IMG/VR virus record: IMGVR_UViG_3300045988_159943
Location: 32,309 to 96,308 of that record
Direction: 5' to 3' (one strand)
Length of the DNA stretch: 64,000 nucleotides
Origin: a virus
Position numbers and translations under genes: made by a program. This document shows positions 10,412-62,188 of the stretch, one piece after another. A model generated the notes under the pieces. That model had not been told where the DNA came from and did not search any database. It saw only the letters and a program-made list of their open reading frames with translations. The stretch's first letter is position 1. The number at the start of each line of letters is the position of its first letter.

Positions 10412-10426
10412 ATAATTTTGTATTGT
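10412..10426 (-). promoter_or_regulatory. conserved motif copy 1 (minus: ACAATACAAAATTAT) upstream of 9854..10390
   Basis: Exact 15-mer ataattttgtattgt on plus; ~20 nt upstream of the RBS. Confidence 0.5.
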
Positions 10427-10460
10427 ATATAAAACGGCTTTATCCGTATAGTTTTCTATT

Positions 10461-10982
10461 TTAAGGGCCCCAATACCAGCAATCATCCTTAACATCTTCG
10501 ACTCGAATATTAATCTTTGGTAAATTAAAACCTGACCTTGCTAATAGAATACTTTCTGCTTCGTCATCAGTAACTTCTATTTCATATTCTTGTTTAACAG
10601 CCTTAATTGCTTCAAGCTTTAAAACTTCACGTTTTACATTTCTACTTTGCTCTAATCCAATTTTTTTTCTCCATTCTGAAGGAACAGGATTTTCAAATTT
10701 AATATTATGTTGATAAGCATAGAGCATAACTACACCAGCGAGGGCACTAAGTTTTTGCACAGTGTCTACGTTTGAACGAAGGACACTTTTTTCCATAATG
10801 ATTACATCAATATTGTCAATATTATCTAAATACTCCCAAATTTTATTTGACATCATAGGGATTCTTTTTGTAACATCCTTTTCTTTATGGCAGTCAATAA
10901 GTGTATGTGTTACATATTCATTATCTTGAAATATACAAATTCCTGTCTTATTTGTGGATGCATCAATTCCAATTACCTTCAT
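10461..10982 (-). CDS. RuvC-like Holliday junction resolvase
   Basis: Start corrected to MKVIGIDASTNKTGICIF, with RBS AGGAGTGAAAAGGATATG. N-terminal IGID.S.N.TG and C-terminal DDEAESILLA are typical of phage RuvC-family resolvases. Confidence 0.7.
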   Translation of the reverse strand: MKVIGIDASTNKTGICIFQDNEYVTHTLIDCHKEKDVTKRIPMMSNKIWEYLDNIDNIDVIIMEKSVLRSNVDTVQKLSALAGVVMLYAYQHNIKFENPVPSEWRKKIGLEQSRNVKREVLKLEAIKAVKQEYEIEVTDDEAESILLARSGFNLPKINIRVEDVKDDCWYWGP

Positions 10983-11003
10983 ATCCTTTTCACTCCTAAA
11001 ACA

Positions 11004-11038
11004 TAAAAAAAATAGGGACACCCACAATAGGTGTCCCT
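11004..11038 (-). terminator. rho-independent terminator after the CHAP lysin gene
   Basis: 9-bp stem agggacacc/ggtgtccct with loop cacaata. It is followed on the minus strand by a U-run (plus strand aaaaaaaa at 11004-11013). Confidence 0.6.
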
Positions 11039-11064
11039 TGAACATAACTACTAACAATATTCAA

Positions 11065-11814
11065 CTACTTCAATAGTGATGTCCAAGTATTTTTACCGAC
11101 TATTCCATCAACTTCTAAACCTTTTTTAGCTTGATATTTTTTCACGGCAGATAAAGTAGCAGAGCCGAAATCTCCATCGGCTCCACTTGAACCACAAGAG
11201 CAATTATTACCTATAAGTAATAACTGTAATGCCTTAACACTATTTCCCTTACTGCCTTGTTTTAAAATTTTCAATTCCACGCTACATACACTCTCCTTTA
11301 GTTGCACATTTTCTTCAGTTGCCTTGGATGTAAAGCTTGGACACCCAAAACCCCTAATATATTTCGCATTAACCGCAATTGTTCTATAACTAACAGAATC
11401 ATTTTTATTTCCCTCTATAACTTTGATATTGTTACCTGAAACGCTTACTACAATTCCAACATGGTCAGAAACACCTTCATTATCTCCAATACCATTATCA
11501 TCAAAATCATAATAAATTATATCTCCCATACTCGGAGTGTAGCTGTCATCTTCTTGCCACCTCCCCAGCTTTTGCCAGAGAGCAATTTGCCTTGGACAAC
11601 TACACTCCGCTGGTATGATATTTAATAATCCACAAAGTTTAGCAATTGCGCTAACAAATGTCGCACACCAAGAATCAGTGTATTTAACCTTATATCCTTG
11701 AGGCAAAGGTTGAATCTTATTATAAGTATCAACAATATACTTATGTTTCTCACTACCTTCAACCACTCCCAAGTAGGATATAGCTGTGCTTACAAAATTT
11801 TGTCTATCGTTCAT
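11065..11814 (-). CDS. endolysin: CHAP-domain peptidase with C-terminal PG_binding_1 domain
   Basis: Cys motif DSWCATFVS and His motif SDHVGIVVSV (CHAP). C-terminus DGDFGSATLSAVKKYQAKKGLEVDGIVGKNTWTSL matches the PG_binding_1 consensus. Confidence 0.8.
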   Translation of the reverse strand: MNDRQNFVSTAISYLGVVEGSEKHKYIVDTYNKIQPLPQGYKVKYTDSWCATFVSAIAKLCGLLNIIPAECSCPRQIALWQKLGRWQEDDSYTPSMGDIIYYDFDDNGIGDNEGVSDHVGIVVSVSGNNIKVIEGNKNDSVSYRTIAVNAKYIRGFGCPSFTSKATEENVQLKESVCSVELKILKQGSKGNSVKALQLLLIGNNCSCGSSGADGDFGSATLSAVKKYQAKKGLEVDGIVGKNTWTSLLK

Positions 11815-11878
11815 AATTACCTCCTATGAAAAACTCATAGAGGTCATTACCCAAGTTGTCATTTTCCTAGAGTTTTAA

Positions 11879-12346
11879 TTAATTTTCTTCTTCAACTTCA
11901 TCCGCATGAGTAGAATCATAATCTACTTCCCAATCTCGCATTTCATCAAGCAAATACTTTGCAAAGCTATTACAATGCAATTTATCAATATATAATTCCT
12001 CAATGCTCATTAAAGTTTTCTTCTCATACAAAGGAAGAACTTCTGTCTCTTTGTACTTATAAAATATATTTTTGATTAAATTACGACATGACGTTTTTGT
12101 AAATTCTAACGCAATTGCATTGGATTGCCGAGTTTCTTCACGAAATTCACTATCTTCCTGTATATGTTTTATGAGCATTTCTTTAATTTCTTTAATATCT
12201 TCACTTGACTCATCTGCATGACTATACTTACTTACAGCCTTCTTAAAAATGTCACGTGCATTTTTAGAAATAAGAGTTATTACAGCGACAGCAGCAGTAA
12301 TACATCCAAGAACTGTCGCTATATTTTCAATCCATGTAATAATCAT
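11879..12346 (-). CDS. membrane-anchored protein (N-terminal TM) in lysis cassette
   Basis: N-terminal hydrophobic helix IATVLGCITAAVAVITLI followed by a charged soluble domain; lies between a holin-like gene and the CHAP lysin. Confidence 0.4.
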   Translation of the reverse strand: MIITWIENIATVLGCITAAVAVITLISKNARDIFKKAVSKYSHADESSEDIKEIKEMLIKHIQEDSEFREETRQSNAIALEFTKTSCRNLIKNIFYKYKETEVLPLYEKKTLMSIEELYIDKLHCNSFAKYLLDEMRDWEVDYDSTHADEVEEEN

Positions 12347-12675
12347 GATTCAACCACCTGCTCTTTTTCAGGAGCATTGACCTTCTTACTCATAGCACAA
12401 AGACTATCAATCATTTCACTTACAACTTCCATGTCAATATCATAGTTAACTAAATTTGCAGAAGCTTGAACCATACCCATAACCCACGCTTTTTTATCAG
12501 CGCCATTATCAAAGAGCGTCTCTGCCTCTTCCATATACTTTGTAACCATAGACATTAGCCCCGGCCAATTTTGTTCACGATGATAGTTTTTAATTGTAGA
12601 AGTAAGCTTAATAACTAACGGTATAGCTGTGCAAATACCAGCTAAAATTGCTAAAATATACTCTAAATACTCCAT
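12343..12675 (-). CDS. putative holin (Holin_LLH-like; single N-terminal TM)
   Basis: 110 aa with TM YILAILAGICTAIPLVI followed by an amphipathic region (KYMEEAETLF..KKAWVMG) recalled as typical of LL-H family holins. Adjacent to the endolysin. Confidence 0.45.
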   Translation of the reverse strand: MEYLEYILAILAGICTAIPLVIKLTSTIKNYHREQNWPGLMSMVTKYMEEAETLFDNGADKKAWVMGMVQASANLVNYDIDMEVVSEMIDSLCAMSKKVNAPEKEQVVES

Positions 12676-12696
12676 GTCCTCAACTCCTTTATTATA

Positions 12697-13011
12697 TTAA
12701 ATTGTTGGCTCATCATACTCGCAATTTTGTTGTGTTGGCTCTACAGAATATTCAGACCCTGTCATTTCGATTTTCATTAATTGTTCAGACTTTGATTTTT
12801 GATAATAAAATGCCGCACTAACACCGTAAGCAGCCCAAGCAGCAGAAACCATAGTAGCAACCCATGGCAAAGAACCAGAGAACTGATTAACAATACATAA
12901 TTCCGCAAGGTGAACACCAGAATATGTCAAAAATGACACAATAGCCGTCTCAAACAGAATTAACAACTTAGAAAATTGAAAACTAAAAACGAAGTTAATA
13001 AATTTCTTCAT
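12697..13011 (-). CDS. putative holin (two TM segments)
   Basis: 104 aa with two hydrophobic helices and a charged C-terminus; 4-nt overlap with the amidase gene upstream. Confidence 0.45.
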   Translation of the reverse strand: MKKFINFVFSFQFSKLLILFETAIVSFLTYSGVHLAELCIVNQFSGSLPWVATMVSAAWAAYGVSAAFYYQKSKSEQLMKIEMTGSEYSVEPTQQNCEYDEPTI

Positions 13012-13808
13012 TTTACAAACCCTAATCTATCAAGCACTGTTACAAATTCATCGCGCTTCAAATAGCTTTCTGGTCTAGTTCCATCAACCAAACCACTCTC
13101 AGAAGCTCTACTCCAAACATCTTGAGCCCATGCTGGAGTTTCCTTTGCGGCAACATAAGCATTTGCTTTTAACAACAAATTATAAGCCTCTTCATTAGTT
13201 AAACTATTTAAAAATTCTGCCTTAGTCATATCTAATTCATCCTCCTTTTGTGTTACAGTTCCATTAAGTCTTTTATTCACTTCATTAGCAATATCTCCAT
13301 ATCTACCAAATAGATAGTTCCCCGGACAACTCTTACCTTTACTTGTTGTATAGCGGTGTGGAACTAGATTGCATACATCCCATCGTCCCGTATAAGCTGG
13401 ACAATTCTCTTTGCCCTCTTTCCAAAGAAGTTTCTTGATCCCATTGCGCTTGCAGATATCTACACATAAGTTGATAAGACTTTCATACGCTTTTGCGCTG
13501 CATCTATATGGTTCTTTATATGTATCAAGACTCGCAACCTCAATAGTAACAACAGAGTGATCTACAGAATGTTCGCAACACCACGCACGATTTGCTTCAT
13601 CTACATATTGTCCAATACGACCATCTGAACCAATGCCATAATGAGAAGATGCTTTCCTCGTCTGGAATACATTACCACAACCTTCAACACTTCCATCAGC
13701 AGCCATTGTGTGAATTGAAATACCTTTAATTTTTGAATTTCTTGGTTTTGTGCAATGGGGAGACCATTTTGTATAATTTACAAGTTTGCTATTGCTCATT
13801 CCCATCAT
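13008..13808 (-). CDS. endolysin: N-acetylmuramoyl-L-alanine amidase (Amidase_2/PGRP family) with C-terminal binding domain
   Basis: KGISIHTMAADGS...SSHYGIGSDGRIGQYVDEANRAWCCEHSVDHSVVTIEVAS matches Amidase_2 zinc-amidase motifs. Confidence 0.8.
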   Translation of the reverse strand: MMGMSNSKLVNYTKWSPHCTKPRNSKIKGISIHTMAADGSVEGCGNVFQTRKASSHYGIGSDGRIGQYVDEANRAWCCEHSVDHSVVTIEVASLDTYKEPYRCSAKAYESLINLCVDICKRNGIKKLLWKEGKENCPAYTGRWDVCNLVPHRYTTSKGKSCPGNYLFGRYGDIANEVNKRLNGTVTQKEDELDMTKAEFLNSLTNEEAYNLLLKANAYVAAKETPAWAQDVWSRASESGLVDGTRPESYLKRDEFVTVLDRLGFVK

Positions 13809-13821
13809 CTCCTTCTTTTAT

Positions 13822-13856
13822 ATACAAAAATAAGTGCCTTCAAAAATAAAAGCACT
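13822..13856 (-). terminator. putative rho-independent terminator between the membrane protein gene and the amidase gene
   Basis: Stem aagtgcctt/aaggcact (one G·U pair) with an 8-nt loop, followed on the minus strand by UAUUUUUGU. Confidence 0.4.
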
Positions 13857-13859
13857 CTT

Positions 13860-14288
13860 TTAAATTAATTTATAATGTGGTTTTTCTTCTTTGAACAAAA
13901 AGTAACGTAAAAAATCATCTACAATAATAGCCACGCATGAAAGGGGAATCCATAGTAAGAAATATTGCAAACAAACCTGTCCCGCAATATTATAAGGATA
14001 GAATGAATAATCCCACACATTAAGATTGAGATATACATTCAAAATAAGACCTGAAACAAATTCTAACGCAGTAATCATAATTGCCCCAATAAGAGATTGC
14101 TGAATAAGACCAAGATCCCATGGGAATACCTCGTTCAGTAATCCGAGCATGATAAAACAAATAGCCCCAAGCCATATCATTGAGGCATGACTACTACCAC
14201 GCCACATTACTTCAAGTCCATAATATGAAAAACCACCAATCACAGCTAAAACAATATATTCAAATATCAATTGCAAACATCTTTTCAT
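13860..14288 (-). CDS. integral membrane protein (about 4 TM) in lysis cassette
   Basis: 142 aa with four hydrophobic segments; located directly upstream of the endolysin. Confidence 0.4.
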   Translation of the reverse strand: MKRCLQLIFEYIVLAVIGGFSYYGLEVMWRGSSHASMIWLGAICFIMLGLLNEVFPWDLGLIQQSLIGAIMITALEFVSGLILNVYLNLNVWDYSFYPYNIAGQVCLQYFLLWIPLSCVAIIVDDFLRYFLFKEEKPHYKLI

Positions 14289-14449
14289 TCGTCAACCACC
14301 TGCACATCATCTTTTTCAGCGCTTGATAACTCTTTATAAATTGTTTTCAATTCTTGTTTAGCTAAACACATAACTTCTACGTTATCACCAGAAACAGGAA
14401 TTGTACTAATAAGACTAAATACTTTATCTAAACTCTTTTTAATGTCCAT
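14285..14449 (-). CDS. small hypothetical protein (54 aa)
   Basis: Start corrected to MDIKKSLDK, with RBS TTGGAGGCAAATTAAAATG just after the fibre gene stop. Confidence 0.35.
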   Translation of the reverse strand: MDIKKSLDKVFSLISTIPVSGDNVEVMCLAKQELKTIYKELSSAEKDDVQVVDE

Positions 14450-14450
14450 T

Positions 14451-15758
14451 TTAATTTGCCTCCAATTGCTCAATACGAGATTCTAATTGTTTTATTTTTG
14501 CGGTGAGGATACCGATAAATTCGTCGTAACGAAGCATATAAGTGCCATTGTCATTTTCATCTTTATCTTTCACGAAACCACCAAAATCTTGAGAATCAAT
14601 ACCAACAACAGCCATAGCTTCTTCAACATCTTGTGCAATAAAACCAACATGATAACGACCAGATGTGCCATCATTCATTTTATAGCGTTTTGCTTCAAGA
14701 TTATCAAATAATGCAATATATTTATCTGGTAAAGACTCAATGCTATTCTTTTGATTTCGGTCAGATGTCTGAATTGTTCCACTGGATATGTATACTGTAT
14801 TCCACCTATTTGCACTTAAACCAAGATATCGTGAACCACTAGTCTCTGGGTAGAGTGCAGTACTGCCAAAATAATAGTTTGTTCCTTTTGCAGTTACACC
14901 TACTCCTGACGCAGTTGCACCAATTTGATTAGAGGTTCCATCATACTTCATATATGCACCACTATTTGTTATATGTATGACCGAATTGCCATTAGGCGAA
15001 AACAAACCCATTCCTTCAATTGTGCTAGAGTTATCCGAAATCTTAGGCTTAATAGAACCAGTTATATTTCCATTTTTTTCGTTATAAATATAAACTACAG
15101 ATCCTGCCAAATAATCTGCTACCACAGTCCCTGTTTTAAGAGAAGATCCGTTTATAGAAGTAGTTCCATCACCATTTATCCAGTCTGTTATTTGACTTAA
15201 CGCCCTTGTTCCTGCAACTGTATTATTAGCGGCAATATTAGCAGTATCAATAGCAGCATTGGCATCTTTTTGGGCATCAACAGCTTTTTTATATGCATCC
15301 AATGCATCTTGCGCAGCACCCGTAACTGTAGTATTACTGTCAATTAAATTATCAACTGTTGTAGTACCATCGCTAATATCACTAAACCTAATTGCCCCAG
15401 TCAAATTTAAGTTAGTAGTATCAATATTGCCACCATCAATAATCGTCTTCCCATTCTCAGTAGTAATAGTTAATCCATCAAGAGTAGCTTTAATTTCTGT
15501 ATAGTCTTCATTTGCTCCTTCTACCTTTTCAATTCTTGCGGTAAAATCACTAACAGTTTGGGTCAAAGTAGAAGTCTGACTTGATATTCCATTTATATTT
15601 TCTGTTTGTGCTTCAACAGTACTAGTAATGCCATCAACAGTTCCTTCAATTTGAGCCAATTTTGTTGTTTGTTCAAAATCAGACTTTTCCAACTGAGACA
15701 CTCTTAATAAAAATTCACTACTAGAAATTTGACTTGCTGGCCCATAGTTAACTAGCAT
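14451..15758 (-). CDS. tail fibre/tailspike with C-terminal peptidase S74 intramolecular chaperone (auto-cleaving) domain
   Basis: C-terminus DKYIALFDNLEAKRYKMNDGTSGRYHVGFIAQDVEEAMAVVGIDSQDFGGFVKDKDE...YDEFIGILTAKIKQLESRIEQLE matches the endosialidase-type intramolecular chaperone domain. Start taken at MLVNYG, with RBS GAGGGGGTGG. Confidence 0.7.
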   Translation of the reverse strand: MLVNYGPASQISSSEFLLRVSQLEKSDFEQTTKLAQIEGTVDGITSTVEAQTENINGISSQTSTLTQTVSDFTARIEKVEGANEDYTEIKATLDGLTITTENGKTIIDGGNIDTTNLNLTGAIRFSDISDGTTTVDNLIDSNTTVTGAAQDALDAYKKAVDAQKDANAAIDTANIAANNTVAGTRALSQITDWINGDGTTSINGSSLKTGTVVADYLAGSVVYIYNEKNGNITGSIKPKISDNSSTIEGMGLFSPNGNSVIHITNSGAYMKYDGTSNQIGATASGVGVTAKGTNYYFGSTALYPETSGSRYLGLSANRWNTVYISSGTIQTSDRNQKNSIESLPDKYIALFDNLEAKRYKMNDGTSGRYHVGFIAQDVEEAMAVVGIDSQDFGGFVKDKDENDNGTYMLRYDEFIGILTAKIKQLESRIEQLEAN

Positions 15759-16281
15759 TCTCTGCCACCCCCTCATCTGTATTTGATGCCATATTTACGT
15801 CTTGAATAACAATATATGCGTTAACAGCGCACTGCACATCATCAACAGCAGGAATAGAACTCGCAGAAAAAGTGATAGTGTTTTCCCCCTGTTCTGTTGC
15901 AGTTACTTTTGCTGCATTATATGCATCTTCACTGTCTGGATCTGGAGATACAGAAATCCATTGTGTATTAACATCTGCATCTACTCCAGGTACATCAGCA
16001 GTTTGGGTGTAATATGTCTCGCCGGTTTCATCATCTATTTGTGCAGTCCAGCCTGGGTCTGTCAATGGTAAAGTAATTTTAAGCATGACAGGGATTCTTG
16101 CAGCCCCAATTGCATTTGGGTCAAGAGGGTCAGTGCCAGTAGACCAATGGTTCTCTGCGTGTTGAGCTGGTGCCACTCCAAGAGCTTCTGGAGAAAGGTC
16201 TGGTTTATTTGTTACACCTAATACATAGTCGAGTGGCAAATCTCCTGCCGTAGTTCTAATCGCAGTTACATAATCTGGCAT
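15748..16281 (-). CDS. hypothetical structural protein (177 aa)
   Basis: ORF in the fibre operon with a D/T/P-rich sequence. Confidence 0.4.
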   Translation of the reverse strand: MPDYVTAIRTTAGDLPLDYVLGVTNKPDLSPEALGVAPAQHAENHWSTGTDPLDPNAIGAARIPVMLKITLPLTDPGWTAQIDDETGETYYTQTADVPGVDADVNTQWISVSPDPDSEDAYNAAKVTATEQGENTITFSASSIPAVDDVQCAVNAYIVIQDVNMASNTDEGVAENAS

Positions 16282-16310
16282 TCACATCACTCTCCTTTTA
16301 TTCATTTTTT

Positions 16311-18290: not shown

Positions 18291-18303
18291 ACTCTACACC
18301 ACC

Positions 18304-18612: not shown

Positions 18613-18625
18613 TTTTTATGCCTCC

Positions 18626-18669
18626 TTTTAAAATAAAAAGAGGGGGCTAAAATACACTAGCCCCGCTCT
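18626..18669 (-). terminator. rho-independent terminator
   Basis: 11-bp stem agagggggcta/tagccccgctct with one bulge and an 8-nt loop. On the minus strand it is followed by CUUUUUAUUUU. Confidence 0.6.
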
Positions 18670-18670
18670 A

Positions 18671-19051: not shown

Positions 19052-19064
19052 ATATTGCGCCTCC

Positions 19065-20672: not shown

Positions 20673-20782
20673 ACAAATTCCTCCTTTAAAATAGAAGCTT
20701 TATCATTAGTTTTAATTTTCATTAATTATAATTTTACAGCATATTAAAAATTTATAATCAACATCTTTCTTGCTTACGTCTA

Positions 20783-31835: not shown

Positions 31836-31850
31836 ATAATTTTGTATTGT
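31836..31850 (-). promoter_or_regulatory. conserved motif copy 2 (ACAATACAAAATTAT), followed by TATAAT
   Basis: Exact 15-mer; about 110 nt upstream of the 31728 start. Confidence 0.5.
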
Positions 31851-31857
31851 TATATAA

Positions 31858-33327
31858 TCATTCAAACACACGCCATGGTTCTTCTTTTTTTATTCGGTTG
31901 TATTCTTGTCGAGTTATATGTTTAAAATGAAACCCATGTGTAGAAGCATTAACCCCACACAAATTATTGATAATACATTTTTTGTTTATAAAAATTCCAA
32001 ATAATGATTCACTATAATTAGAACATATCGTTGAGTATGGAAATACATATCCATTATCTAAACATAGCACTGGCATTTTCATTTTTGGCTCATATTCAAC
32101 CCATCCAAGATTATGCCCTTTACTTAAATACGCACTTACAGTACAAGAAGCTTTATTCATTATTCTAGCAATTTCACTTGCGTTATGAATTCCACCATTC
32201 CATAAGTTACATGCTATTTTTATTAAATTGCTACATGCATATTTATCGCATTCATTCCAATCAATATCATTTTCAGAAAAATTAAAAATATTTGGAAGTA
32301 TGCTAGACATTATTGAGTTTTTTATAAAAATTTTATCAGATTTTCTACAATCAATAACAACATAATTCTCTGGTTTAATACCGTTTTGAATTGCCAAATT
32401 ATATTTAAATAAGTCATTTGCTTGTTCTTCTACTAAAGTTCTTCCTCCGCAATATTCAAAACCACCATCTTCATAATGTTGGGCACCATGAGCTTCAATG
32501 ATTATATCTGTATTATAAATCAAATAAAAATCATATATCCTTCTTGGTCTTGTCCCATTTATTTTTTTAGACCATTCAAATGTTTTCTCGGGTTCAAAAG
32601 AAAAATCATTTTTATTCTGTATTTGTTTTAAAAAACTATATATAAATTTATTAGCATAGCTTATATTGTCTCCACACTTAGAACATGAATACCTATCTCC
32701 ATTACGAAAGGCATTGAATATTTCAGTATATTTTTCATATCCACAATCAGGGCACTTAAACCATGCTTTTTTACCACTTCTAATACTATATTTTAATGTG
32801 TCATCTAAATTCTTAAAGTATTTAACAAATTTTGGATGTGTAGTTGCTATATCATTATATCCACTAAGAGTGATTCTTCCTACACATACTGGACAATTTT
32901 TATGATTTTTAAACTCTTGTTCTGTTTTTATCCCACAATAACCATCTATCAAACATTTATAACCATATGTCTTTCTATTTTTATCATCTCTATACCTATT
33001 AGTAATTAACAAATGGTCATTAATTATGTCGCCAATATTATATATAAATTTAGCATATTGTTTCGCTTTTAATATGTTTCCAAGACGCACATTTATAATT
33101 GACCCTGTATTAACTAAATAATGAGACACATATCCATTTATATCAATATATACTTTTTGGTTGTTATAGTACTCAGATATTAAAATTGTAGAACGAATGT
33201 CATTATATTGAAACTCAATTGTTTTTCCAATTGATTTTTCCCACCAAACTCTTTTTCCTCTCATTGAAAGATTACTTAAATCAACCCATCCATAATCACT
33301 ATAATTTATCATTTGTTTATTTTTCAT
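31858..33327 (-). CDS. homing-endonuclease-like protein (zinc ribbons, Vsr/DUF559-like nuclease core, IENR/NUMOD-like DNA-binding repeats)
   Basis: CPVCVGR / CPDCGYEK / CSKCGD zinc ribbons. IIIEAHGAQHYEDGG...LVEEQANDLFKYNLAIQNGI is the nuclease core. C-terminal VLCLDNGYVFPYSTICSNYSESLFG...HGFHFKHITRQEY resembles intron-endonuclease DNA-binding repeats. Confidence 0.5.
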   Translation of the reverse strand: MKNKQMINYSDYGWVDLSNLSMRGKRVWWEKSIGKTIEFQYNDIRSTILISEYYNNQKVYIDINGYVSHYLVNTGSIINVRLGNILKAKQYAKFIYNIGDIINDHLLITNRYRDDKNRKTYGYKCLIDGYCGIKTEQEFKNHKNCPVCVGRITLSGYNDIATTHPKFVKYFKNLDDTLKYSIRSGKKAWFKCPDCGYEKYTEIFNAFRNGDRYSCSKCGDNISYANKFIYSFLKQIQNKNDFSFEPEKTFEWSKKINGTRPRRIYDFYLIYNTDIIIEAHGAQHYEDGGFEYCGGRTLVEEQANDLFKYNLAIQNGIKPENYVVIDCRKSDKIFIKNSIMSSILPNIFNFSENDIDWNECDKYACSNLIKIACNLWNGGIHNASEIARIMNKASCTVSAYLSKGHNLGWVEYEPKMKMPVLCLDNGYVFPYSTICSNYSESLFGIFINKKCIINNLCGVNASTHGFHFKHITRQEYNRIKKEEPWRVFE

Positions 33328-35411: not shown

Positions 35412-35426
35412 ATAATTTTGTATTGT
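35412..35426 (-). promoter_or_regulatory. conserved motif copy 3 (ACAATACAAAATTAT, followed by AATATTATAGGAGG ATG)
   Basis: Exact 15-mer; about 25 nt upstream of the 35388 start. Confidence 0.5.
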
Positions 35427-45078: not shown

Positions 45079-45140
45079 AATTCTTTTCTCCTTTTATTTC
45101 CCTTTTTATCTTTTTTCAATGTACTCACGTGCTGCACACC

Positions 45141-45185
45141 GAAAAAAATAAGGCACTAACTGTCTTGTAGAAATAGTTAGCACCT
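45141..45185 (-). terminator. rho-independent terminator after the zinc-ribbon gene
   Basis: 12-bp stem aaggcactaact/agttagcacctt (2-nt internal mismatch) with a 13-nt loop, followed on the minus strand by AUUUUUUUC. Confidence 0.5.
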
Positions 45186-45192
45186 TATGGTT

Positions 45193-45549: not shown

Positions 45550-45574
45550 TAACTAACCTCCAATCATAAATTAT

Positions 45575-45612
45575 TTATATAAATAAAGAGGAGGGATGAT
45601 ACCCTCCTCTTC
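45575..45612 (-). terminator. strong rho-independent terminator after the major tail protein gene
   Basis: 10-bp GC-rich stem aagaggaggg/ccctcctctt with loop atgata, followed on the minus strand by UUUAUUUAU. Confidence 0.7.
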
Positions 45613-45622
45613 TCAACTAATA

Positions 45623-46384: not shown

Positions 46385-46421
46385 AATTGTTTACCTCCAT
46401 AAAATATATTTTAATTTTGTG

Positions 46422-46460
46422 CATAATAAAAGAGCTAGGTTTAATCTTTATCTAGCTCTT
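46422..46460 (-). terminator. rho-independent terminator overlapping the stop of ORF 46441..47187, upstream of the major tail protein gene
   Basis: 9-bp stem aagagctag/ctagctctt with a 13-nt loop, followed on the minus strand by UUUUAUUAU. Confidence 0.5.
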
Positions 46461-50416: not shown

Positions 50417-50431
50417 ATAATTTTGTATTGT
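50417..50431 (-). promoter_or_regulatory. conserved motif copy 4 (ACAATACAAAATTAT)
   Basis: Exact 15-mer, followed by AGGATATAAAAGGAGA and the ATG at 50390. Confidence 0.5.
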
Positions 50432-52086: not shown

Positions 52087-52109
52087 AATTAAAATTCCTC
52101 ACTTTCATA

Positions 52110-52124
52110 ATAATTTAGTATTGT
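52110..52124 (-). promoter_or_regulatory. conserved motif copy 5, variant (ACAATACTAAATTAT)
   Basis: One mismatch to the consensus; about 25 nt upstream of the ATG at 52086. Confidence 0.4.
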
Positions 52125-52138
52125 AATTAAATGTAATA

Positions 52139-53791: not shown

Positions 53792-53840
53792 TCTTAAACC
53801 TCCTTTCCTTGAAAGTCTATATTGCAACTCCGAAAAGAGA

Positions 53841-54635
53841 TTACAAACTTAAACATGAATTATTTTGTTCCATTAACCATTCATCATAATATATAAATCT
53901 ATTATGCTTTTTACATCTATTACAAATAGTATCTCTATGTACATCGTTGTCTTCTGCTGCTTCTTTTACACAATCATAAATTTTATTATCAGACAACCTT
54001 ATAACCTTTCTCGCTTTTGGGTTTCCACTTCCGGTAAGCCGATCTGAATATTCTTTCCTCAATGAGTCAGTCCACTTTTTTTTCATACTTTCCTTTATTT
54101 TTTCTTTTGTATCTTGCGCGAGATGCTTTCCAATATTTATTTGTCTTAAATATTCTTTTCGTTCGTCAGTCATATTCGAAATAGCGGCACTCCTCATTTT
54201 CTGTCTTGTTTCTTTTGACAAATTTGATTTTGACTTACTAATTTTTCTTTTCGTCTCATCTGTATGATGTTTGCCATACATTGGGTTATTTTGTGGATCA
54301 GAGAATTTTTCTTTCATATGACGACTACTGGTTTCAGAATACACAATTCTTATCTCTTCATATTCTTTTGGAGTAAGTTCATATTGTCGTCCATCATTTT
54401 TTACAAATGCCATACAAGACCATGCGTATACTAGTTTCCATTCTTGAGGATTTTCCAATGCCAGTAACCTATGAGCCTCAAAATGTTCCCTAGCGAACAA
54501 GTCAATCAGGTTTTCTTCATCGTTTGTCCCACCCATACACTTTGGTAAAATATGATGACGTTCATGATATTCATCTCCACAAGCAAATCTTCCACGGGTG
54601 TCTAAAATATTTTGTATAAACTCTGTATAACTCAT
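53841..54635 (-). CDS. HNH homing endonuclease with NUMOD3/IENR-like DNA-binding repeats
   Basis: HERHHILPKCMGGTNDEENLIDLFAREHFEAHRL is an HNH motif. NPMYGKHHTDETKRKIS is a NUMOD3-like repeat. Confidence 0.8.
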   Translation of the reverse strand: MSYTEFIQNILDTRGRFACGDEYHERHHILPKCMGGTNDEENLIDLFAREHFEAHRLLALENPQEWKLVYAWSCMAFVKNDGRQYELTPKEYEEIRIVYSETSSRHMKEKFSDPQNNPMYGKHHTDETKRKISKSKSNLSKETRQKMRSAAISNMTDERKEYLRQINIGKHLAQDTKEKIKESMKKKWTDSLRKEYSDRLTGSGNPKARKVIRLSDNKIYDCVKEAAEDNDVHRDTICNRCKKHNRFIYYDEWLMEQNNSCLSL

Positions 54636-54660
54636 ATTAAAACCTCCATATTAATTTCCA

Positions 54661-54693
54661 AATTAAAAAGACGCTTACTTTTTGCGTAAGCGC
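54661..54693 (-). terminator. rho-independent terminator overlapping the 3' end of the small gene 54676..54848
   Basis: Stem cgcttac/gtaagcg with loop tttttgc, followed on the minus strand by UUUUUAAUUU. Confidence 0.45.
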
Positions 54694-54848
54694 CATTCAT
54701 TCAATAATTTCGTTATTTGCTCCCCATTTTCAAAAACCCAAAAGGTTTTTCCTGTGTTTAAATTTTTTGAATACATAATAATCTCACAACCATTTTGAAT
54801 AAAGAACTCTTTCATGGGCCATGAATAACAGTAAAAATATTTTTTCAT
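54676..54848 (-). CDS. small paralog-family protein (DUF5659-like), copy C (57 aa; not in the ORF track)
   Basis: My own translation is MKKYFYCYSWPMKEFFIQNGCEIIMYSKNLNTGKTFWVFENGEQITKLLNEWRLRKK, with RBS ATTATAGGAGAAGATACATATG. Confidence 0.45.
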
Positions 54849-54862
54849 ATGTATCTTCTCCT

Positions 54863-54877
54863 ATAATTTTGTACTGT
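54863..54877 (-). promoter_or_regulatory. conserved motif copy 6, variant (ACAGTACAAAATTAT)
   Basis: Immediately upstream of the RBS of 54676..54848. Confidence 0.45.
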
Positions 54878-55068
54878 TAAAATGTAAGCTTATTTGTAAA
54901 AACAAATTTCTTTCTATCAAGTTGCTCAAAACTAAAAGTCTTCGGGGGCTGATTGATAAAAATATATCCTCCACCGCTTTGAGACAGGAGTTTAAATCCT
55001 GCTGCTATAAAAATTTTTGCAGTTAACTCATCAGTTGTTAAAATAAACTTGTCATTTTTAGTAGGCAT
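54877..55068 (-). CDS. small paralog-family protein (DUF5659-like), copy D
   Basis: FILTTDELTAKIFIAAGFKLLSQS...YIFIN fits the family pattern. RBS TTAGGGGTGATTTAATG. Confidence 0.45.
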   Translation of the reverse strand: MPTKNDKFILTTDELTAKIFIAAGFKLLSQSGGGYIFINQPPKTFSFEQLDRKKFVFTNKLTF

Positions 55069-55081
55069 TAAATCACCCCTA

Positions 55082-55096
55082 ATAATTTTGTATTGT
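55082..55096 (-). promoter_or_regulatory. conserved motif copy 7 (ACAATACAAAATTAT)
   Basis: Exact 15-mer immediately upstream of the RBS of 54877..55068. Confidence 0.5.
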
Positions 55097-55101
55097 ATAA
55101 T

Positions 55102-56655: not shown

Positions 56656-56670
56656 ACTTCACCGCCTTTC

Positions 56671-58731
56671 TTAACCAAATATAGATTCATGCCCCTGTGG
56701 AGCACGTATTTTAAATTGATCTAATATACTTTTAGTTTCAGGTTTTTTACGTTGCCTAATATTAGACATACGTTTTTCAGATAACCAATATGAAGCCATT
56801 ACATAGGTGTATGCTCGGTCATCATGAAGCTTTCCAACCTTTTCTGGTATCAATTCAAAAGAATCTTTCCCCGAATCACGTTTAATACGCCTCATATTAA
56901 CAAGTTCTTCTTTGAGTGCATCAATATTTGCTAACGCAATTTCTTGATAAGGATCTAATTTGACCATTTTGCTTTTAACAACAGAAGACTTTTTAAGTTC
57001 TTCCTTCAACCTAAAAGCAAATTCCTCTTCAGAGACTTTTTCTTTTTTGAGCCTATCTTCAATAGATTTTTTAACTTTTGCAGTTTCCGCATCATCAGTT
57101 TGGAATAAAGTTAAATATCCCTTATTATCATAATCTGCAGTGAAATTAACAAAATTACTGTTTGTCATCTCAATGGCCGATTCATACATAATAGACTTAT
57201 ACTTACTTGGTTCAAGTAATTTAACTTTATCTATTGCATTTGGATATTTTCTAGAATATCCAGTTCCAAGTTGTTTGTCTGTCTCTTTGTCAATTAATCC
57301 ATGATGAAGTTTACCTTTATGGTCAACCCAATCTTGCATCAACATATCAGCAATAACTTTACCTGCGCCACCGGCACCAGCATCAATTAAAACAGCCTCG
57401 ATATTTTTATATTCAGGAGCATCTCCGTTATAATCTAAAATTAACTGTCTTAAATAATCTACTTGATCTGGAGTTTGCATAGGAGCTTTACGTTTATTGC
57501 TAACATCAATCATATTAACACAATTAACAATGCGTCCTTTATATCCGTCACGGTCTGTATATATTTCCATAACCGTAATAATACTATTATCTCTACTTCT
57601 CGCAGGGTCAAAACATAAAACAAATTTTTTCTCATTTGTATCATTATATAACAGTGGAACTCTAGTTTCGCTATTACGTGTAATAACTCCACGCCTTATA
57701 ATTGCCTCATTGCCTGCATCAGAAGTAAATTCACAATAATATTCACGTCTTGCTTTTTCAGGATTTGTTCTTACTGCTGTTTCTATATCACTCTTTTTTA
57801 ATAACGCATTAACTACTTCACCATGAATAGTTGGCTTAAGGACTATATCACATGGCACTTGTACAACACAATAATCTCGGTCTCCCATGATTTGTCTTTT
57901 TGAAAATTCTCTATATAATCTATAAAATTTAGTATCGGTGCTAGATGCAGAACTGATATAAAATTTTTGATTGGGAATATTAGTTGCAAAAGTACGAAGT
58001 CTAATAGGATCAATCATTTTGCCATTTCTATCTTTACCAGAAGCGAATCCCTTATTAACTGCAGCAAATGCTCCATAGACTTCAAGCATTTCTTCTGATA
58101 AGAAACCACATTCGTCAAAAATAACATTACCACGCATACCACGTTTTTTATCAATATTACTATTTAACGTCTGAGTAAATGAACCATTGTATAGACTATA
58201 TTTAAATCCATTGTTTCCATGGCTAAATCCATCGCCTGATGCATTATTAATTTCAACTTCATTCTTAAAAATATAACCAGTTGAGTTTCTAAATTCGTCA
58301 ATCCCGTCATTTGCAAGACGTTCAAGGGTAGTAAATGTCTGTTCTGCCTGACTACCAGAACCAGACGCTATATAACTCCATATATTGCAGAACAACATAT
58401 CTTTTGCCATTAACATCAAGTCAATAACAGTACTTTTACCAAATGCACGACTTGCAAGGACTAACACATTTGGGCAATTCCATGTTCTTGCAACAATATA
58501 TGCCTGAGCATCAAGCAACGTAATATTAAAAAAGTCTTCAATAAATCTAACTGGGTTACATTGATAATATCTTTGTATTTCTGCAATATGTATTAAAGAT
58601 TCTAATTTTCTATCAGACATTGCATATACGCCCGGCTTAACATATATAACAGTACCATCATTAAAAATTGACATCAAATCTTCATCATCAATTCTATCGA
58701 CAATTGCAAGCGTCATATTATCCATCGTCAT
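56671..58731 (-). CDS. terL: terminase large subunit
   Basis: Walker A-like VLVLASRAFGKST, a C-terminal nuclease-like region with acidic residues, 686 aa, upstream of the portal gene. Confidence 0.7.
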   Translation of the reverse strand: MTMDNMTLAIVDRIDDEDLMSIFNDGTVIYVKPGVYAMSDRKLESLIHIAEIQRYYQCNPVRFIEDFFNITLLDAQAYIVARTWNCPNVLVLASRAFGKSTVIDLMLMAKDMLFCNIWSYIASGSGSQAEQTFTTLERLANDGIDEFRNSTGYIFKNEVEINNASGDGFSHGNNGFKYSLYNGSFTQTLNSNIDKKRGMRGNVIFDECGFLSEEMLEVYGAFAAVNKGFASGKDRNGKMIDPIRLRTFATNIPNQKFYISSASSTDTKFYRLYREFSKRQIMGDRDYCVVQVPCDIVLKPTIHGEVVNALLKKSDIETAVRTNPEKARREYYCEFTSDAGNEAIIRRGVITRNSETRVPLLYNDTNEKKFVLCFDPARSRDNSIITVMEIYTDRDGYKGRIVNCVNMIDVSNKRKAPMQTPDQVDYLRQLILDYNGDAPEYKNIEAVLIDAGAGGAGKVIADMLMQDWVDHKGKLHHGLIDKETDKQLGTGYSRKYPNAIDKVKLLEPSKYKSIMYESAIEMTNSNFVNFTADYDNKGYLTLFQTDDAETAKVKKSIEDRLKKEKVSEEEFAFRLKEELKKSSVVKSKMVKLDPYQEIALANIDALKEELVNMRRIKRDSGKDSFELIPEKVGKLHDDRAYTYVMASYWLSEKRMSNIRQRKKPETKSILDQFKIRAPQGHESIFG

Positions 58732-60010
58732 CTTCCTCCTCTTCGGGAATAACCATATCTCCGAAAGGTGAGAATAAATCTTTTAGATTTTTTAATGACC
58801 CAATGTCTAATAATTCATTTTCTTCCAACGTATCTCTTAAATCAAGATTTTCTCTTAACAAAATTCTATTTACTTCTTTATAAACATCACGTTCATTTTG
58901 AAGATCAACTATCATTTTACGTTGGTCTGCAACCATATCTGACCATTCAGATTCATCAAGACGCAATTGTTTCATTATAGAAGCGTCACTCATGTCAAGA
59001 ACTTGCTGCATACCCCTACAAGTCCCTATGTCAAACCCATTAACCTCTGCTTCTCTAAGATCCATATCTTTAAGCTTTTTAATTTTACCAGTCCAAGTGT
59101 TTTCACCCTTACTAGCATTTTTATTATGCTTTAAGCTCAAACAACTTTGTTCGGCCAATGTAGAAATTGTCGAACTAATTTTTTGTTTTGAATCTAATAA
59201 TGATTTAATTTCACCAGTTTTTCCATCTCTGCCGATATTCTTCATCGCACCAGAAATCATATCATCTATCTTTGCTTGTTGCAAAAATCCACGAACAATA
59301 GTGATGGCAGAACTGGTTCGCATCATATCCTCATTATCTCCACCCAAATCAAGATATCCAACTAACTGAGAATATAGTAATGGCTTGTCAGCTTCTGCCT
59401 CACTACCAAATGGGTCATATCCAAGCAAGCGAATAACGCTACTTTTGTTTTTCATATACTCATTATAAATTTCTTGATCCTTTGGGACTTCAACTTTTTC
59501 TTCTTTTGGGGTGATAATATCATAAGCTTCTTCTTTATTCTCTTCAATTTTTGCTTGTGTTTGATATGTAGTAAATAAATCTCCATCTTGCCAACGCATA
59601 CCTTTGTATTGGCTTAATGATGTAATATTTTTAATATAAGTTCCCCACAAAGTTGACCTTTTCAATCCTGCATTTGGATTGTTAAATTCATTATAGCTGG
59701 ACTCATAAATATCTTCAAGCCAAGGTTTATCAAGCCTTTCGAGTGCAGCCTGTATAGATGCTTTCGTGCAATCACCATATTCGCCAGTATTTGGATTGTA
59801 GTTTCTTGCAATCTTGCCAGCACAATCTCTACACATAGTTGTTAATCCAGTAAGTACAAGTGGGTCAGTGCTAACATAAAAAGCATCTTTACCTTTTTCT
59901 TTATCACAATATGGGCATAAATACTTACGATCTGGATCTACATCCTTAGTTTTAACTGCCTTTTTCCTACCTCTAGTTTCGGTTTTACGTCCACCCATCG
60001 AAGTAGCCAT
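58718..60010 (-). CDS. putative terminase small subunit or DNA-packaging accessory protein (zinc-ribbon, coiled-coil, acidic tail)
   Basis: CPYCDKEK...CRDC zinc ribbon; overlaps the terL start by 14 nt. The call is by position only. Confidence 0.3.
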   Translation of the reverse strand: MATSMGGRKTETRGRKKAVKTKDVDPDRKYLCPYCDKEKGKDAFYVSTDPLVLTGLTTMCRDCAGKIARNYNPNTGEYGDCTKASIQAALERLDKPWLEDIYESSYNEFNNPNAGLKRSTLWGTYIKNITSLSQYKGMRWQDGDLFTTYQTQAKIEENKEEAYDIITPKEEKVEVPKDQEIYNEYMKNKSSVIRLLGYDPFGSEAEADKPLLYSQLVGYLDLGGDNEDMMRTSSAITIVRGFLQQAKIDDMISGAMKNIGRDGKTGEIKSLLDSKQKISSTISTLAEQSCLSLKHNKNASKGENTWTGKIKKLKDMDLREAEVNGFDIGTCRGMQQVLDMSDASIMKQLRLDESEWSDMVADQRKMIVDLQNERDVYKEVNRILLRENLDLRDTLEENELLDIGSLKNLKDLFSPFGDMVIPEEEEDDDG

Positions 60011-60062
60011 TACTCATCCTCCCTTCTATCGAATCTTTTGTAAATAAAAAGAAGACAACGAC

Positions 60063-60281
60063 TTATTCAGCCGTTGCCTCTTTCTTGGATTCTGCAATTT
60101 CTCTATTAATCTGAGCAAAGGCCTCTTCAAACTCAGGTGTACGCTTAAAAACAAAAACAGTTTTGTCGTGGTTGTCTCTATCTGGCTTAAAATCAAAAAC
60201 AGGAACTCCCATTTTAGAATGAAGCCGTCTTGCTACACCTGCATTTCTAATACATTTGTACTCTTTTCTAATATCTTCCAT
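60063..60281 (-). CDS. small paralog-family protein (DUF5659-like), copy E
   Basis: GVARRLHSKMGVPVFDF...KTVFVFKRTPEFEEAFAQI fits the family pattern. Confidence 0.45.
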   Translation of the reverse strand: MEDIRKEYKCIRNAGVARRLHSKMGVPVFDFKPDRDNHDKTVFVFKRTPEFEEAFAQINREIAESKKEATAE

Positions 60282-60295
60282 GTTGTTTTTCCTCC

Positions 60296-60310
60296 ATAAT
60301 TTTGTATTGT
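60296..60310 (-). promoter_or_regulatory. conserved motif copy 8 (ACAATACAAAATTAT, followed by GGAGGAAAAACAACATG)
   Basis: Exact 15-mer directly abutting the RBS of 60063..60281. Confidence 0.5.
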
Positions 60311-61510
60311 TTAAAAAGTAATATTATATGAACAAATTTTACCGTCTTCTTCATTAAAAATACATAAAGTTTGTCCAGCCTTAGAATAAAGGCGCTTGTT
60401 ATTTGCATACTCATCAGTTCCACATAATGAACTAACAAGCACATTTTCTATTCCATAAAAATCAATTGACTCGCTATGATGTTTATCTCCAGAAAAGACG
60501 TATTCAACATCAAAACCAAATTGCTTGCTAAATAACATATGCATGTCTGTTCCTAATTTTTTGAAGCTATCTAAATCTCCATGAGTACCAATTACATCAT
60601 GACCACAAATGTTACAATAAATAAATTCATAAAATACGTTTTGACTAATAGATACTTTGTTATTATCTTTAAATCTTTGTTCTAGCCACCATGGTACAAT
60701 AGATTCTAAATTATCTGAATGAATGCTATCTTCTTTTTTTTGAACAATTCGTGCGTGATTGCCATAGGTAGAATACACATAAACATGATTTACATACTGT
60801 GATAATATATAAATAACCTCAGCAAGTAATTCTGAGGCATGCATCAACTGTTCACAGACATTTTCTTCTGAGGCAACCCTACAGGAAGTATGACATGCCC
60901 CATGTATCAAATCTCCAAGAACCATAATATGTAAATTGTTTACGCTATGTAGTTTTAAATATTCCCTTGCTTTACGTATAAACTTGTGTAATCTTGCTTC
61001 GCAAATTTGAACATTATATTTGTTCCAAACATTATCAGTGACCATGCCATAATGCCAGTCGGCAAAACAAATTAATGCATCATTTTTTGCATTAGTATTA
61101 TGATTTTCATCACAAGAAAAAGACTTTCCAAAATTAAGTCTGTTTGCCGCCTTAATAAGTTCTTCTTCTAGATGTTCAGAACGAGCATCGTATGTCAATA
61201 ACTTATTATATTCTCTTCGCTGATCCTGAAGTTGCTTCTTAGCCTTATATAATTCATCTTTTTCTTCTTGAATTTTCTTCAAATATTCATCATCAGAAAA
61301 GGCCCACTTCTCGTGAGCCTTCAATCCATTCTGAAAATATTGATATTTCTTTCGATATGCTGATGATGTATAGTTATTATTAAGTGCTCCATTTATAATA
61401 TCTGCAATTTCTTGCCAAGTCATACCAGAGCTATCTTTCATAGAGCAGATTCTAAATATATACTGCTCTTCATTTTCTTCATTTGGCTTAAATGCTAAAT
61501 CATTCATCAT
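60311..61510 (-). CDS. metallophosphoesterase with N-terminal HTH-like region
   Basis: Motifs LICFADWHYG, MVLGDLIHG, YGNHA, GTHGD and SGDKHHSE. Start corrected to MMNDLAFK, with RBS GAGGAG. Overlaps the stop of the upstream HU-like gene by 11 nt. Confidence 0.65.
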   Translation of the reverse strand: MMNDLAFKPNEENEEQYIFRICSMKDSSGMTWQEIADIINGALNNNYTSSAYRKKYQYFQNGLKAHEKWAFSDDEYLKKIQEEKDELYKAKKQLQDQRREYNKLLTYDARSEHLEEELIKAANRLNFGKSFSCDENHNTNAKNDALICFADWHYGMVTDNVWNKYNVQICEARLHKFIRKAREYLKLHSVNNLHIMVLGDLIHGACHTSCRVASEENVCEQLMHASELLAEVIYILSQYVNHVYVYSTYGNHARIVQKKEDSIHSDNLESIVPWWLEQRFKDNNKVSISQNVFYEFIYCNICGHDVIGTHGDLDSFKKLGTDMHMLFSKQFGFDVEYVFSGDKHHSESIDFYGIENVLVSSLCGTDEYANNKRLYSKAGQTLCIFNEEDGKICSYNITF

Positions 61511-61841
61511 CAGAAAACTCCTCATTTTCATCTTCCAGCGCATTGATTCTATTTCTATAAGATTGCTTAAATTTACAATATGGAATCAACTTTTCTGGAG
61601 TAATAATTTCACTTCTATCCCTTGGGTCGCAATAGGGACGCTCTGGCAATCGTTTTGCACCCAACCTCCATCCTGAAAAAAGTCGTATCTCTGATGGTTC
61701 ATCAAATGTAGCTGTGTTCATAGCCTCAATAATTATATTATCAAGTTCTTCAAGAACAATTTTTAATTCACGCTTATAAAAACCTGTACGTTCACTTAGT
61801 TCATCTATAACATCTTTTTGTGTCATATAAGTTGAAATCAT
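61500..61841 (-). CDS. HU/IHF-like DNA-binding protein
   Basis: TQKDVIDELSERTGFYKRELKIVLEEL...IRLFSGWRLGAKRLPERPYCDPRDRSEIITPEKLIPYCKFKQ aligns with the HU fold (arm with conserved R/P). Confidence 0.55.
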   Translation of the reverse strand: MISTYMTQKDVIDELSERTGFYKRELKIVLEELDNIIIEAMNTATFDEPSEIRLFSGWRLGAKRLPERPYCDPRDRSEIITPEKLIPYCKFKQSYRNRINALEDENEEFSDDE

Positions 61842-61875
61842 TTTGCACCACCTACCTTTTTTAAAATGTTAAGTA

Positions 61876-62064
61876 TTATTCTTCTTGCCCATACTCTTCT
61901 GCATAAGCAATAGATAGGGTACATTCTCTTGCATCAAATTCTTGGGCCAAAGATGCAACAGGGATTACTTCACCAGTATTTGCATCCTCAAAAGAGATAA
62001 CATTGTTCTCTACATAGAGAATTGCCTTGATGCTTAGAGTGTGTTTCTTATTAATCTTAGACAT
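61876..62064 (-). CDS. hypothetical small protein (62 aa)
   Basis: ORF with RBS AAGAAGGAACTAGAATG; motif copy 9 lies 110 nt upstream. Confidence 0.3.
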   Translation of the reverse strand: MSKINKKHTLSIKAILYVENNVISFEDANTGEVIPVASLAQEFDARECTLSIAYAEEYGQEE

Positions 62065-62173
62065 TCTAGTTCCTTCTTTCTGTATTTATTGCATTGATAG
62101 ACGTATAAATATTCATCTCTTCTATCACTACTATTGTTTTTTGAGGACATTAAAAAAACGCAACAATTTACTA

Positions 62174-62188
62174 ATAATTTTGTACTGT
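62174..62188 (-). promoter_or_regulatory. conserved motif copy 9, variant (ACAGTACAAAATTAT)
   Basis: One mismatch to the consensus; in the 152-nt gap 62065-62216. Confidence 0.4.

Follow-up and report, generated by a model that had tools for sequence, protein, structure and literature searches.

The DNA analyzed here is a 64,000-nt stretch of a viral genome (positions 32,309 to 96,308 of the IMG/VR record IMGVR_UViG_3300045988_159943; hereafter, the window), and the element in question is a 15-nt motif that is repeated between its genes. Its gene content identifies the window as the late-gene cluster of an SPbeta-like phage, and the motif is a real, non-random, and functional element of it. 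The explanation that we favor, and to which we give about an even chance, is that the 15-mer is the operator of a master repressor of the MrpR/YopR/SroF type, that is, the counterpart in this clade of the SPBRE and SroF boxes; under this reading it would most likely be a new variant, with its own box sequence. An unusual feature is the extension of such a box into the late cluster, at positions that are conserved in relatives of the phage.

Nine exact matches to ATAATTTWGTAYTGT were found on the plus strand of the window, at the positions given in a preliminary description of this DNA, and 0.00 copies were expected from 100 dinucleotide shuffles of the window, so that the copy number is indeed far beyond chance. 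Because all the genes of the window are on the minus strand, the motif reads ACA[A/G]TAC[A/T]AAATTAT in the gene sense. All nine copies have this same, gene-sense orientation, and the core CAATACAA, with nine occurrences on the gene strand, is absent from the antisense strand. The non-coding share of the window amounts to 1815 nt (2.8%) and contains all the exact copies, as expected from the description of the motif as always intergenic, with the detail that the copy at 54863–54877 has one base in common with the stop codon upstream. When up to two mismatches were allowed, six more matches appeared on the same strand, all within coding sequence. In seven of the nine cases, 13–26 nt separate the end of the motif from the start codon, and a Shine-Dalgarno (SD) sequence is found 0–12 nt past the motif; for the copies at 31836 and 62174, the distance to the start codon is 107 and 109 nt, respectively, in agreement with the earlier account of a usually SD-adjacent element with two copies about 110 nt upstream. 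Across the clade (106 unique copies), conservation is limited to the 15 bases and a weak t-G at +16/+17. The AT-rich hexamer that had been proposed to precede the motif reflects base composition only, as no flank position there is conserved among these copies.

No self-complementarity or hairpin was found within the 15-mer, no antisense partner of it in the window, and no Rfam family matched the window or its close relatives. At none of the nine window copies is there a host sigma-A promoter pair (−35 TTGACA and −10 TATAAT, 16–18 bp apart), and sigma-70-like promoter matches are not enriched in the window (76 vs. 81 expected).

The copies, all given here on the minus strand and in the order in which the genes are read, are distributed as follows. 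The first one (62174–62188, ACAGTACAAAATTAT) lies 28 nt past the stop codon of the C-terminal piece of an RNA polymerase (RNAP) gene and 109 nt before a YonK-like gene, and has syntenic counterparts in the related loci L002, L003, L007, L008, and L181. The copy at 60296–60310 (ACAATACAAAATTAT) fits between the stop codon of a YonJ-like gene (0 nt gap) and the GGAGG of a gene for a 72-aa DUF5659-like protein, with counterparts in L002, L003, L008, L014, L181, and L186. Past the portal gene, the copy at 55082–55096 ends 13 nt before the start of a small gene (63 aa), and the one at 54863–54877 (ACAGTACAAAATTAT) ends 14 nt before a 57-aa DUF5659-like gene. Thus, three copies precede small DUF5659-like genes, as had been noted for at least three of a set of small paralogs; the Pfam matches of these genes are weak. 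The copy at 52110–52124 (ACAATACTAAATTAT) stands before a 171-aa gene, which precedes the major capsid gene, and the copy at 50417–50431, between the major capsid gene and a 182-aa gene, has syntenic counterparts in L110, L117, L138, L162, and L191. Further on, 35412–35426 is located before a 588-aa gene, 31836–31850 begins 7 nt past the stop codon of a gene for a 489-aa zinc-ribbon protein and is 107 nt from a 95-aa gene, and 10412–10426 ends at a distance of 21 nt from position 10390, where the gene 9854–10390 likely starts. The 489-aa protein itself (31858–33327, minus strand) is encoded in the tail/fibre region and gives weak zinc-ribbon matches (DUF4379, IS1595-type); its gene is followed by the motif copy and a structured 107-nt leader. 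Two further sites on the minus strand, previously listed as degenerate relatives of the motif before the major tail gene and a fibre gene, are half-motifs: at 46410–46424 (ATGCACAAAATTAAA, before a 253-aa tail gene) and at 20726–20740 (GCTGTAAAATTATAA, before a 535-aa gene) only the 3′ half, ACAAAATTA or TAAAATTAT, matches, and the rest of the motif does not.

Relatives of the phage were collected in three ways. Homologues of the RNAP pieces led to metagenomic contigs (L002–L010), a further 80 loci, from Clostridia and Paenibacillus, came out of a genome scan, and an exact-match scan of IMG/VR returned many contigs of true relatives, of ~100–160 kb. No near-identical DNA was found in the annotated phage collection, and neither an exact-protein look-up with a window open reading frame (ORF) nor a single-protein scan of viral contigs gave a match. 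The exact 15-mer is present on the gene strand, between genes, in L003/L004, L007, and L008, whose RNAP pieces are 43–63% identical to those of the window, as well as in the near-identical L002 (94% in the RNAP piece); L005 has a variant ending in TTAA, and the motif or a variant is present in L014 and L056. In the IMG/VR relatives, protein identity to the window is 69–70% for the terminase, 64% for the portal, 55% for the capsid, and 46–49% for the RNAP pieces. The 15-mer is kept in relatives at 45–70% protein identity, and late copies recur at matching places in the gene order, such as past the capsid gene and ahead of the gene that precedes it. These relatives are roughly 150-kb SPbeta-like prophages, since their integrase gene adjoins host genes for guanylate kinase and a permease.

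It is in these relatives that the relationship of the motif to host promoters becomes visible. In 24 unique cases, and in one more shifted by 2 bp, the 15-mer is built into a consensus sigma-A promoter of the form TTG-ACAATACAAAATTAT-tgtgg-TATAAT (context A), in which its ACA completes the −35 element and its remainder fills the 17-bp spacer. In 16 unique cases, including the promoter before the RNAP gene, it lies 4–36 nt behind the −10 element of a consensus promoter (context B). Six unique copies are reversed. They lie in the promoter spacers of two genes, one being the mrpR-like gene itself (TTGACA-att-ATAATTTTGTACTGT-ACAAT), and, in the integrase promoter, immediately past the −10 element. 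Lastly, at least 48 unique copies, and all nine in the window, stand alone directly before a ribosome-binding site, with no host promoter (context C). As many as 47 of the 75 strong sigma-A-like matches in the relatives' loci carry the 15-mer, and the flanks of the 106 copies showed no other conserved sequence able to act as an operator at the consensus promoters. Consensus promoters must be under the control of an operator in a prophage; since their surroundings show no other conserved element, we take the 15-mer to be the repressor operator.

A repressor of the appropriate kind is encoded in the relatives. The 306-aa gene at L100 6624–7544 is a homologue of MrpR/YopR/SroF, with a Pfam match to MrpR_N_CB (2.4e-12; 47.8 bits, cut-off 27) a BLASTP match to SPbeta YopR (6e-12), and a match to MrpR in the PDB (8a0a, 1e-9); its best PDB match is SroF-phi3T (9rd5, 4.7e-15). 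The mrpR-like gene (L170) and late genes (L181, L162) were found together on one contig, 120783 (IMGVR_UViG_3300045988_120783), and IMGVR_UViG_3300045988_134876 also encodes an MrpR-like protein. A 324-aa recombinase encoded beside the mrpR-like gene was also considered as the YopR homologue and rejected, being a true tyrosine recombinase.

Under the operator reading, ACAATACAAAATTAT is a predicted protein-recognition site on double-stranded DNA, and the repressor would be an integrase-fold protein that clamps around an asymmetric A-tract box as a monomer. Every copy would be occupied by one such monomer in the lysogen. In the early regions of the relatives, where the box is inside or just behind a consensus sigma-A promoter, host RNA polymerase would be blocked; TTGACAATACAAAATTATTGTGGTATAAT, for instance, would be repressed by the MrpR-like protein of the relatives. 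Each of the nine stand-alone late copies marks the 5′ border of a gene or a block of genes, and a repressor on them would stop polymerases starting there or passing through, including the YonO-type polymerase whose gene is just upstream. We infer both the binding of the repressor and its effect at the late copies from the sequences compared. One way to account for the late copies may be that polymerases are halted by the repressor where they enter a block of late genes.

Several observations weigh against this interpretation. As the window covers only late genes, the repressor gene was seen only in the relatives. In our own scans, the late operons of SPbeta and phi3T are without a box, and the late cluster of the window has nine. 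No sigma-A promoter is available for repression at the late copies (again, 76 matches vs. 81 expected in the window). The conserved unit is 15–17 bp rather than 24–26 bp, and the similarity to SPBRE is partial, as the core contacted by MrpR, ATATGTATA, is absent from the 15-mer.

All the long ORFs of the window are on the minus strand, and directly upstream of the first motif copy are two RNAP pieces; the phage encodes an RNAP of the kind that the preliminary description had suggested looking for. The middle piece (63118–63999, minus strand) belongs to an ORF that runs off the window and matches c-st CST178 (tblastn, 35% identity, 6e-48), the C-terminal third of a 924-aa protein of Spbetavirus BUCT082, and a PMBT24 protein annotated 'RNA-dependent RNA polymerase'. 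The C-terminal piece (62217–63134, minus strand, 305 aa, with zinc ribbons) overlaps the former and has the position of c-st CST177, annotated 'YonO-homolog (C-ter only)'; its homologue adjoins the RNAP in all the relatives. As the neighboring c-st ORFs are annotated as N- and C-terminal parts of YonO, we identify both as pieces of a YonO-type RNAP, and in the relatives the N-terminal part of the RNAP matches the Pfam family RdRP (PF05183). The order of the genes that follow is common to the window and SPbeta, namely YonK, an HU-like gene, YonJ, YonG, the terminase, the portal, and YonD, and matches to Pfam YonK, YonJ_N, YonG_N, and YonD_N were obtained in the late genes of the relatives. The YonK-like gene (61876–62064, minus strand; Pfam YonK, 1.2e-3) is the first one past the copy at 62174. 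The last late-cluster gene in the window is an ORF of >3088 codons (1–9265, minus strand) that runs off the left end.

The small genes next after the copies at 60296 and 54863 both end in an intrinsic-terminator-like hairpin on the minus strand (60052–60080 and 54670–54694, respectively). More such hairpins with T-runs were seen in the intergenic regions 45550–45622, 45079–45192, 18613–18670, and 13809–13859. No motif copy follows any of the terminator-like hairpins of the late cluster, so that late transcription is presumed to continue past them; this suggests a phage polymerase that ignores terminators, and protein road-blocks would be useful against such an enzyme.

The presence of this polymerase makes it necessary to consider the 15-mer as a promoter, or promoter-specificity site, of the YonO-type RNAP, as the preliminary description had suggested in proposing a phage-specific promoter class. 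In such a model, the RNAP would read CAATACAA, melt the AT-rich 3′ part, and start 1–2 nt past the 15-mer, producing short leaders with the SD sequence near the 5′ end. The RNAP pieces directly upstream of the first copy are in its favor. In SPbeta, late transcription by YonO begins at a single site upstream of yonK, with a promoter sequence that is undefined (Forrest et al. 2017, PMC5467207), and the copy at 62174, between the RNAP gene and yonK, is at the site of this start region and is the best-conserved block of its intergenic region in an alignment of six relatives. Also consistent with a promoter are the late copies that lack a sigma-A promoter, yet are conserved at syntenic sites, the copies found in relatives before homing-endonuclease genes inside the interrupted RNAP gene, and two units in the window composed of motif, small gene, and terminator. 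Two other clades with a YonO-type RNAP have repeats of their own that include the core CAATACAA: in one the repeat is TCAATACAATTAKAAAGA and in the other TCAATACAA, followed by 7 AT-rich bases and ATTTaCAG. Both are found after consensus sigma-A promoters and after RNAP genes (loci L017, L019, L022, and L033, e.g., L019 534, 3523, and 7056; and L053 3009, 5233, and 8761), and an ungapped comparison of the three clades shows CAATACAA conserved, then seven variable AT-rich bases, then a purine.

The promoter model, however, leaves unexplained why the 15-mer forms the −35 element and spacer of two dozen consensus host promoters, and why reversed copies occur in the promoters of the mrpR-like and integrase genes; if the motif were a promoter only, strong host-type promoters in a prophage would have no visible operator. 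In SPbeta the late genes have a single transcription start site (TSS), and no repeated late motif is present in SPbeta, c-st, or PMBT24; the c-st and PMBT24 stretches that include the RNAP and late genes contained no repeated k-mer of at least 12 bases. The SPbeta TSS (genome position 2225998) is bracketed by the published primers to L006 5100–5293, and this start region has only ACAATA in common with the 15-mer. Besides, several copies are immediately followed by a terminator hairpin. We consider the promoter reading possible but doubtful, and most of the weight that we give it goes to a version in which the operator role coexists with it. That the 15-mer is both the promoter or specificity site of a YonO-family RNAP and the box of an MrpR/SroF-type repressor is, taken by itself, unlikely. 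In this dual model, the 15 bp of each transcription unit would be contested directly by repressor and phage polymerase; early units would have the box with a host promoter around it, and late units the box alone. The earlier proposal thus stands insofar as the motif is a transcription-control element distinct from a host −35/−10 pair in a phage that encodes an RNAP; the promoter-embedded and reversed copies, on the other hand, are the behavior of an operator.

An element acting at the RNA level, in the 5′ leader, was weighed as well, either as a processing site (comparable to the RNase III sites of T7), as a translational enhancer or operator by the SD sequence, or as an antitermination signal. 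The copies are co-oriented with the genes and mostly close to the SD sequence (within 0–12 nt in seven of nine), the relatives have the 15-mer at variable distance in the transcribed leader of sigma-A promoters, and SPbeta has A-rich ACAAATAYAAA stretches before some SD sequences. Nevertheless, these readings fail because context A places the 15-mer (as −35 element and spacer of 24 unique promoters) upstream of the start site, where that promoter leaves it untranscribed, and because of the reversed copies. The lack of a hairpin and of an antisense partner in the window, an exact conservation over 15 nt that exceeds the specificity of host RNases, and the two window copies more than 100 nt from the start codon also argue against an RNA-level role, which we regard as very improbable.

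Still less credence, so little that we would be surprised to see it borne out, is given to the motif being mainly a recombination linker, that is, a repeat serving as a joint for the gain and loss of cassettes (comparable to the promoter-stem-loop cassettes of T4-type phages), with little regulatory function at the late copies. Such variation does exist. A ClpP-PhoH block is located between the RNAP and YonK genes and flanked by two motif copies in L003 (11062–13598), L007 (11961–13461), and L008 (11709–13212), in the order motif-ClpP-PhoH-(gene)-motif-YonK, and it is absent from the window (62065–62216) and from L002, each with a single motif copy before YonK, which is the pattern expected from recombination between repeats. 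Likewise, between the portal and YonD-like genes the window has two small DUF5659-like genes (54675–54848 and 54877–55068), each with its own motif copy, and an HNH/NUMOD3 endonuclease gene (53841–54635, minus strand), whereas a single small gene, without the motif, is located there in L005, L007, and L008. Tyrosine recombinases are encoded beside the mrpR-like gene. The copies at core sites, however, are kept across relatives at 45–70% protein identity without cassette variation; recombination between repeats is a consequence of any repeated operator or promoter and leaves the constancy of the 15 bases unexplained. The cassette variation at the copies is therefore regarded as a side effect of repetition.

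Other candidate identities were rejected. The window copies are not host sigma-A promoters, having no −35/−10 pair and no enrichment. Under a reading as T4 MotA-like boxes (motif at −30, −10 element five nt downstream), no consistent −10 element was found and the start would fall behind the SD sequence. The IHF-like consensus WATCAANNNNTTR does not fit, and no fit to the 3′ end of 16S rRNA was seen in a comparison by eye with a B. subtilis-type tail. A terminator is ruled out since the motif contains no hairpin.

Some observations on the surroundings of the motif were made along with the above. The leader between the copy at 62174 and the YonK-like gene contains a conserved hairpin, GATAG...CTATC (62095–62128, minus strand), which is present in the minimum-free-energy fold and shows a compensatory change to GAAAG...CTTTC in the alignment with L008. 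Upstream of it, this 109-nt leader also has an A-rich box with a second partial ACAATA. At the same site SPbeta has a 1.7-kb non-coding stretch, and in its yonN-yonK region (L006 4815–6497) an Rfam DUF3800-VIII RNA is found at 6175–6240, downstream of the YonO start region. The SPbeta primer-extension primers map to L006 5076–5099 and ~5293–5319, the printed reverse primer being one T short of the genome.

In the relatives, the YonO-type RNAP gene is split between its N-terminal (Pfam RdRP) and middle parts by a GIY-YIG or HNH homing-endonuclease gene (L003 6310–10132; L004 5406–9228; L005 7465–11134; L007 7336–11065; L008 7012–10804). The conserved non-coding flank of the insert (…gaagtgccaaggttct…gatatagtct…), compared between L005 9832–10000 and L010 4462–4836, resembles a group I intron, and Rfam made no call on it at the gathering threshold. 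The yonO gene of phi3T is likewise annotated in two pieces. The major capsid gene also matches in two pieces in several IMG/VR relatives (L117 350–2685; L110 4664–6476; L191 2811–5055), and the insert between them contains a sigma-A promoter with the motif embedded in it, along with the intron-like 'ggttcaacga' that also occurs in the RNAP insert.

To our knowledge, SPBRE-type boxes and integrase-fold repressors have been studied so far only in Bacillus phages. The same logic appears to extend to gut Clostridia, whose roughly 150-kb prophages carry a box of new sequence, catalogued here in more than 100 copies; unlike in the model phages, the box has spread into the late structural cluster. 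This spread suggests either direct repression or road-blocking of the phage polymerase, or a site common to repressor and polymerase. As the promoter of YonO-type RNAPs has been an open question since 2017, the 15-mer of this clade is also a short and precisely defined candidate for it.

The closest known system is that of SPbeta, where ten promoters carry the 15-bp SPBRE bound by MrpR (Kohm et al. 2023, PMC10516654). The SPbeta sequence gives ACAAATACAAAtAATATGTATA as the conserved block around this element. Like the 15-mer, SPBRE is a repeated, non-palindromic box of ~15–22 bp in a fixed orientation relative to the genes, and like the 15-mer of the relatives it is found inside the −35/spacer/−10 region of sigma-A promoters (aimR, yonP, yosX) or 4–7 nt behind the −10 element, sometimes abutting the SD sequence. 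The boxes of yopV and yonX are of the latter kind, a few nt behind the −10 element and against the SD sequence, the former being arranged as TTGACA-17-TATAGT-4 nt-box-SD. The two boxes have ACAA(A)TACAAA in common and belong to the same phage family, and a repressor homologue is present in the relatives that carry the 15-mer. They differ in that the invariant SPBRE core ATATGTATA is not in the 15-mer, and in that SPbeta has ~14 copies, all outside the late operon, whereas the window has 9 in the late structural cluster with no sigma-A promoters; a few 15-mer copies in the relatives are reversed, unlike SPBRE. In SPbeta, the left half of SPBRE (ACAAATAYAAA) also occurs alone before the ribosome-binding sites of yorG, yorV, and yosW, and a fourth time just downstream of yorZ (sites 101000, 115061, 116395, and 128674 of the SPbeta record, L013); these lone halves have no ATATGTATA core, and none is among the reported MrpR peaks.

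The repressor of phi3T, SroF-phi3T, binds as a monomer to an A-tract box of 26 bp that is asymmetric and present at many dispersed sites, and the boxes differ between repressor variants (Chmielowska et al. 2025, bioRxiv 10.1101/2025.11.27.690993). Our scan of phi3T gave ~16 boxes (Phi3TRE), all in one orientation relative to the genes, several of them directly before the SD sequence or start codon inside operons. Co-orientation and the stand-alone placement of context C are therefore normal for such boxes, and in being asymmetric, dispersed, co-oriented, and in part stand-alone before an SD sequence or start codon, Phi3TRE is like the 15-mer. It does not resemble the latter in sequence (ATTTTATTTTTATTCTTAAT) and is longer (24–26 bp), and the late region of phi3T (1–50 kb) has no Phi3TRE copies, unlike the window.

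Promoters of phage RNAPs of the T7 class share with the 15-mer near-identical, co-oriented copies through the late genes and near ribosome-binding sites; a phage RNAP gene is likewise present upstream of the 15-mer copies, one of which is syntenic with the YonO start region. T7-type promoters, however, are not embedded in host promoters, nor are they reversed in the promoters of lysogeny genes. Outside this family of phages, the operators of the C1 repressor of phage P1 offer a further parallel. The fold of C1 is unrelated, and the P1 operators overlap promoters; like the 15-mer, they are asymmetric sites, of ~17 bp, bound by a monomeric repressor and dispersed in many copies over a temperate genome of roughly 100 kb.

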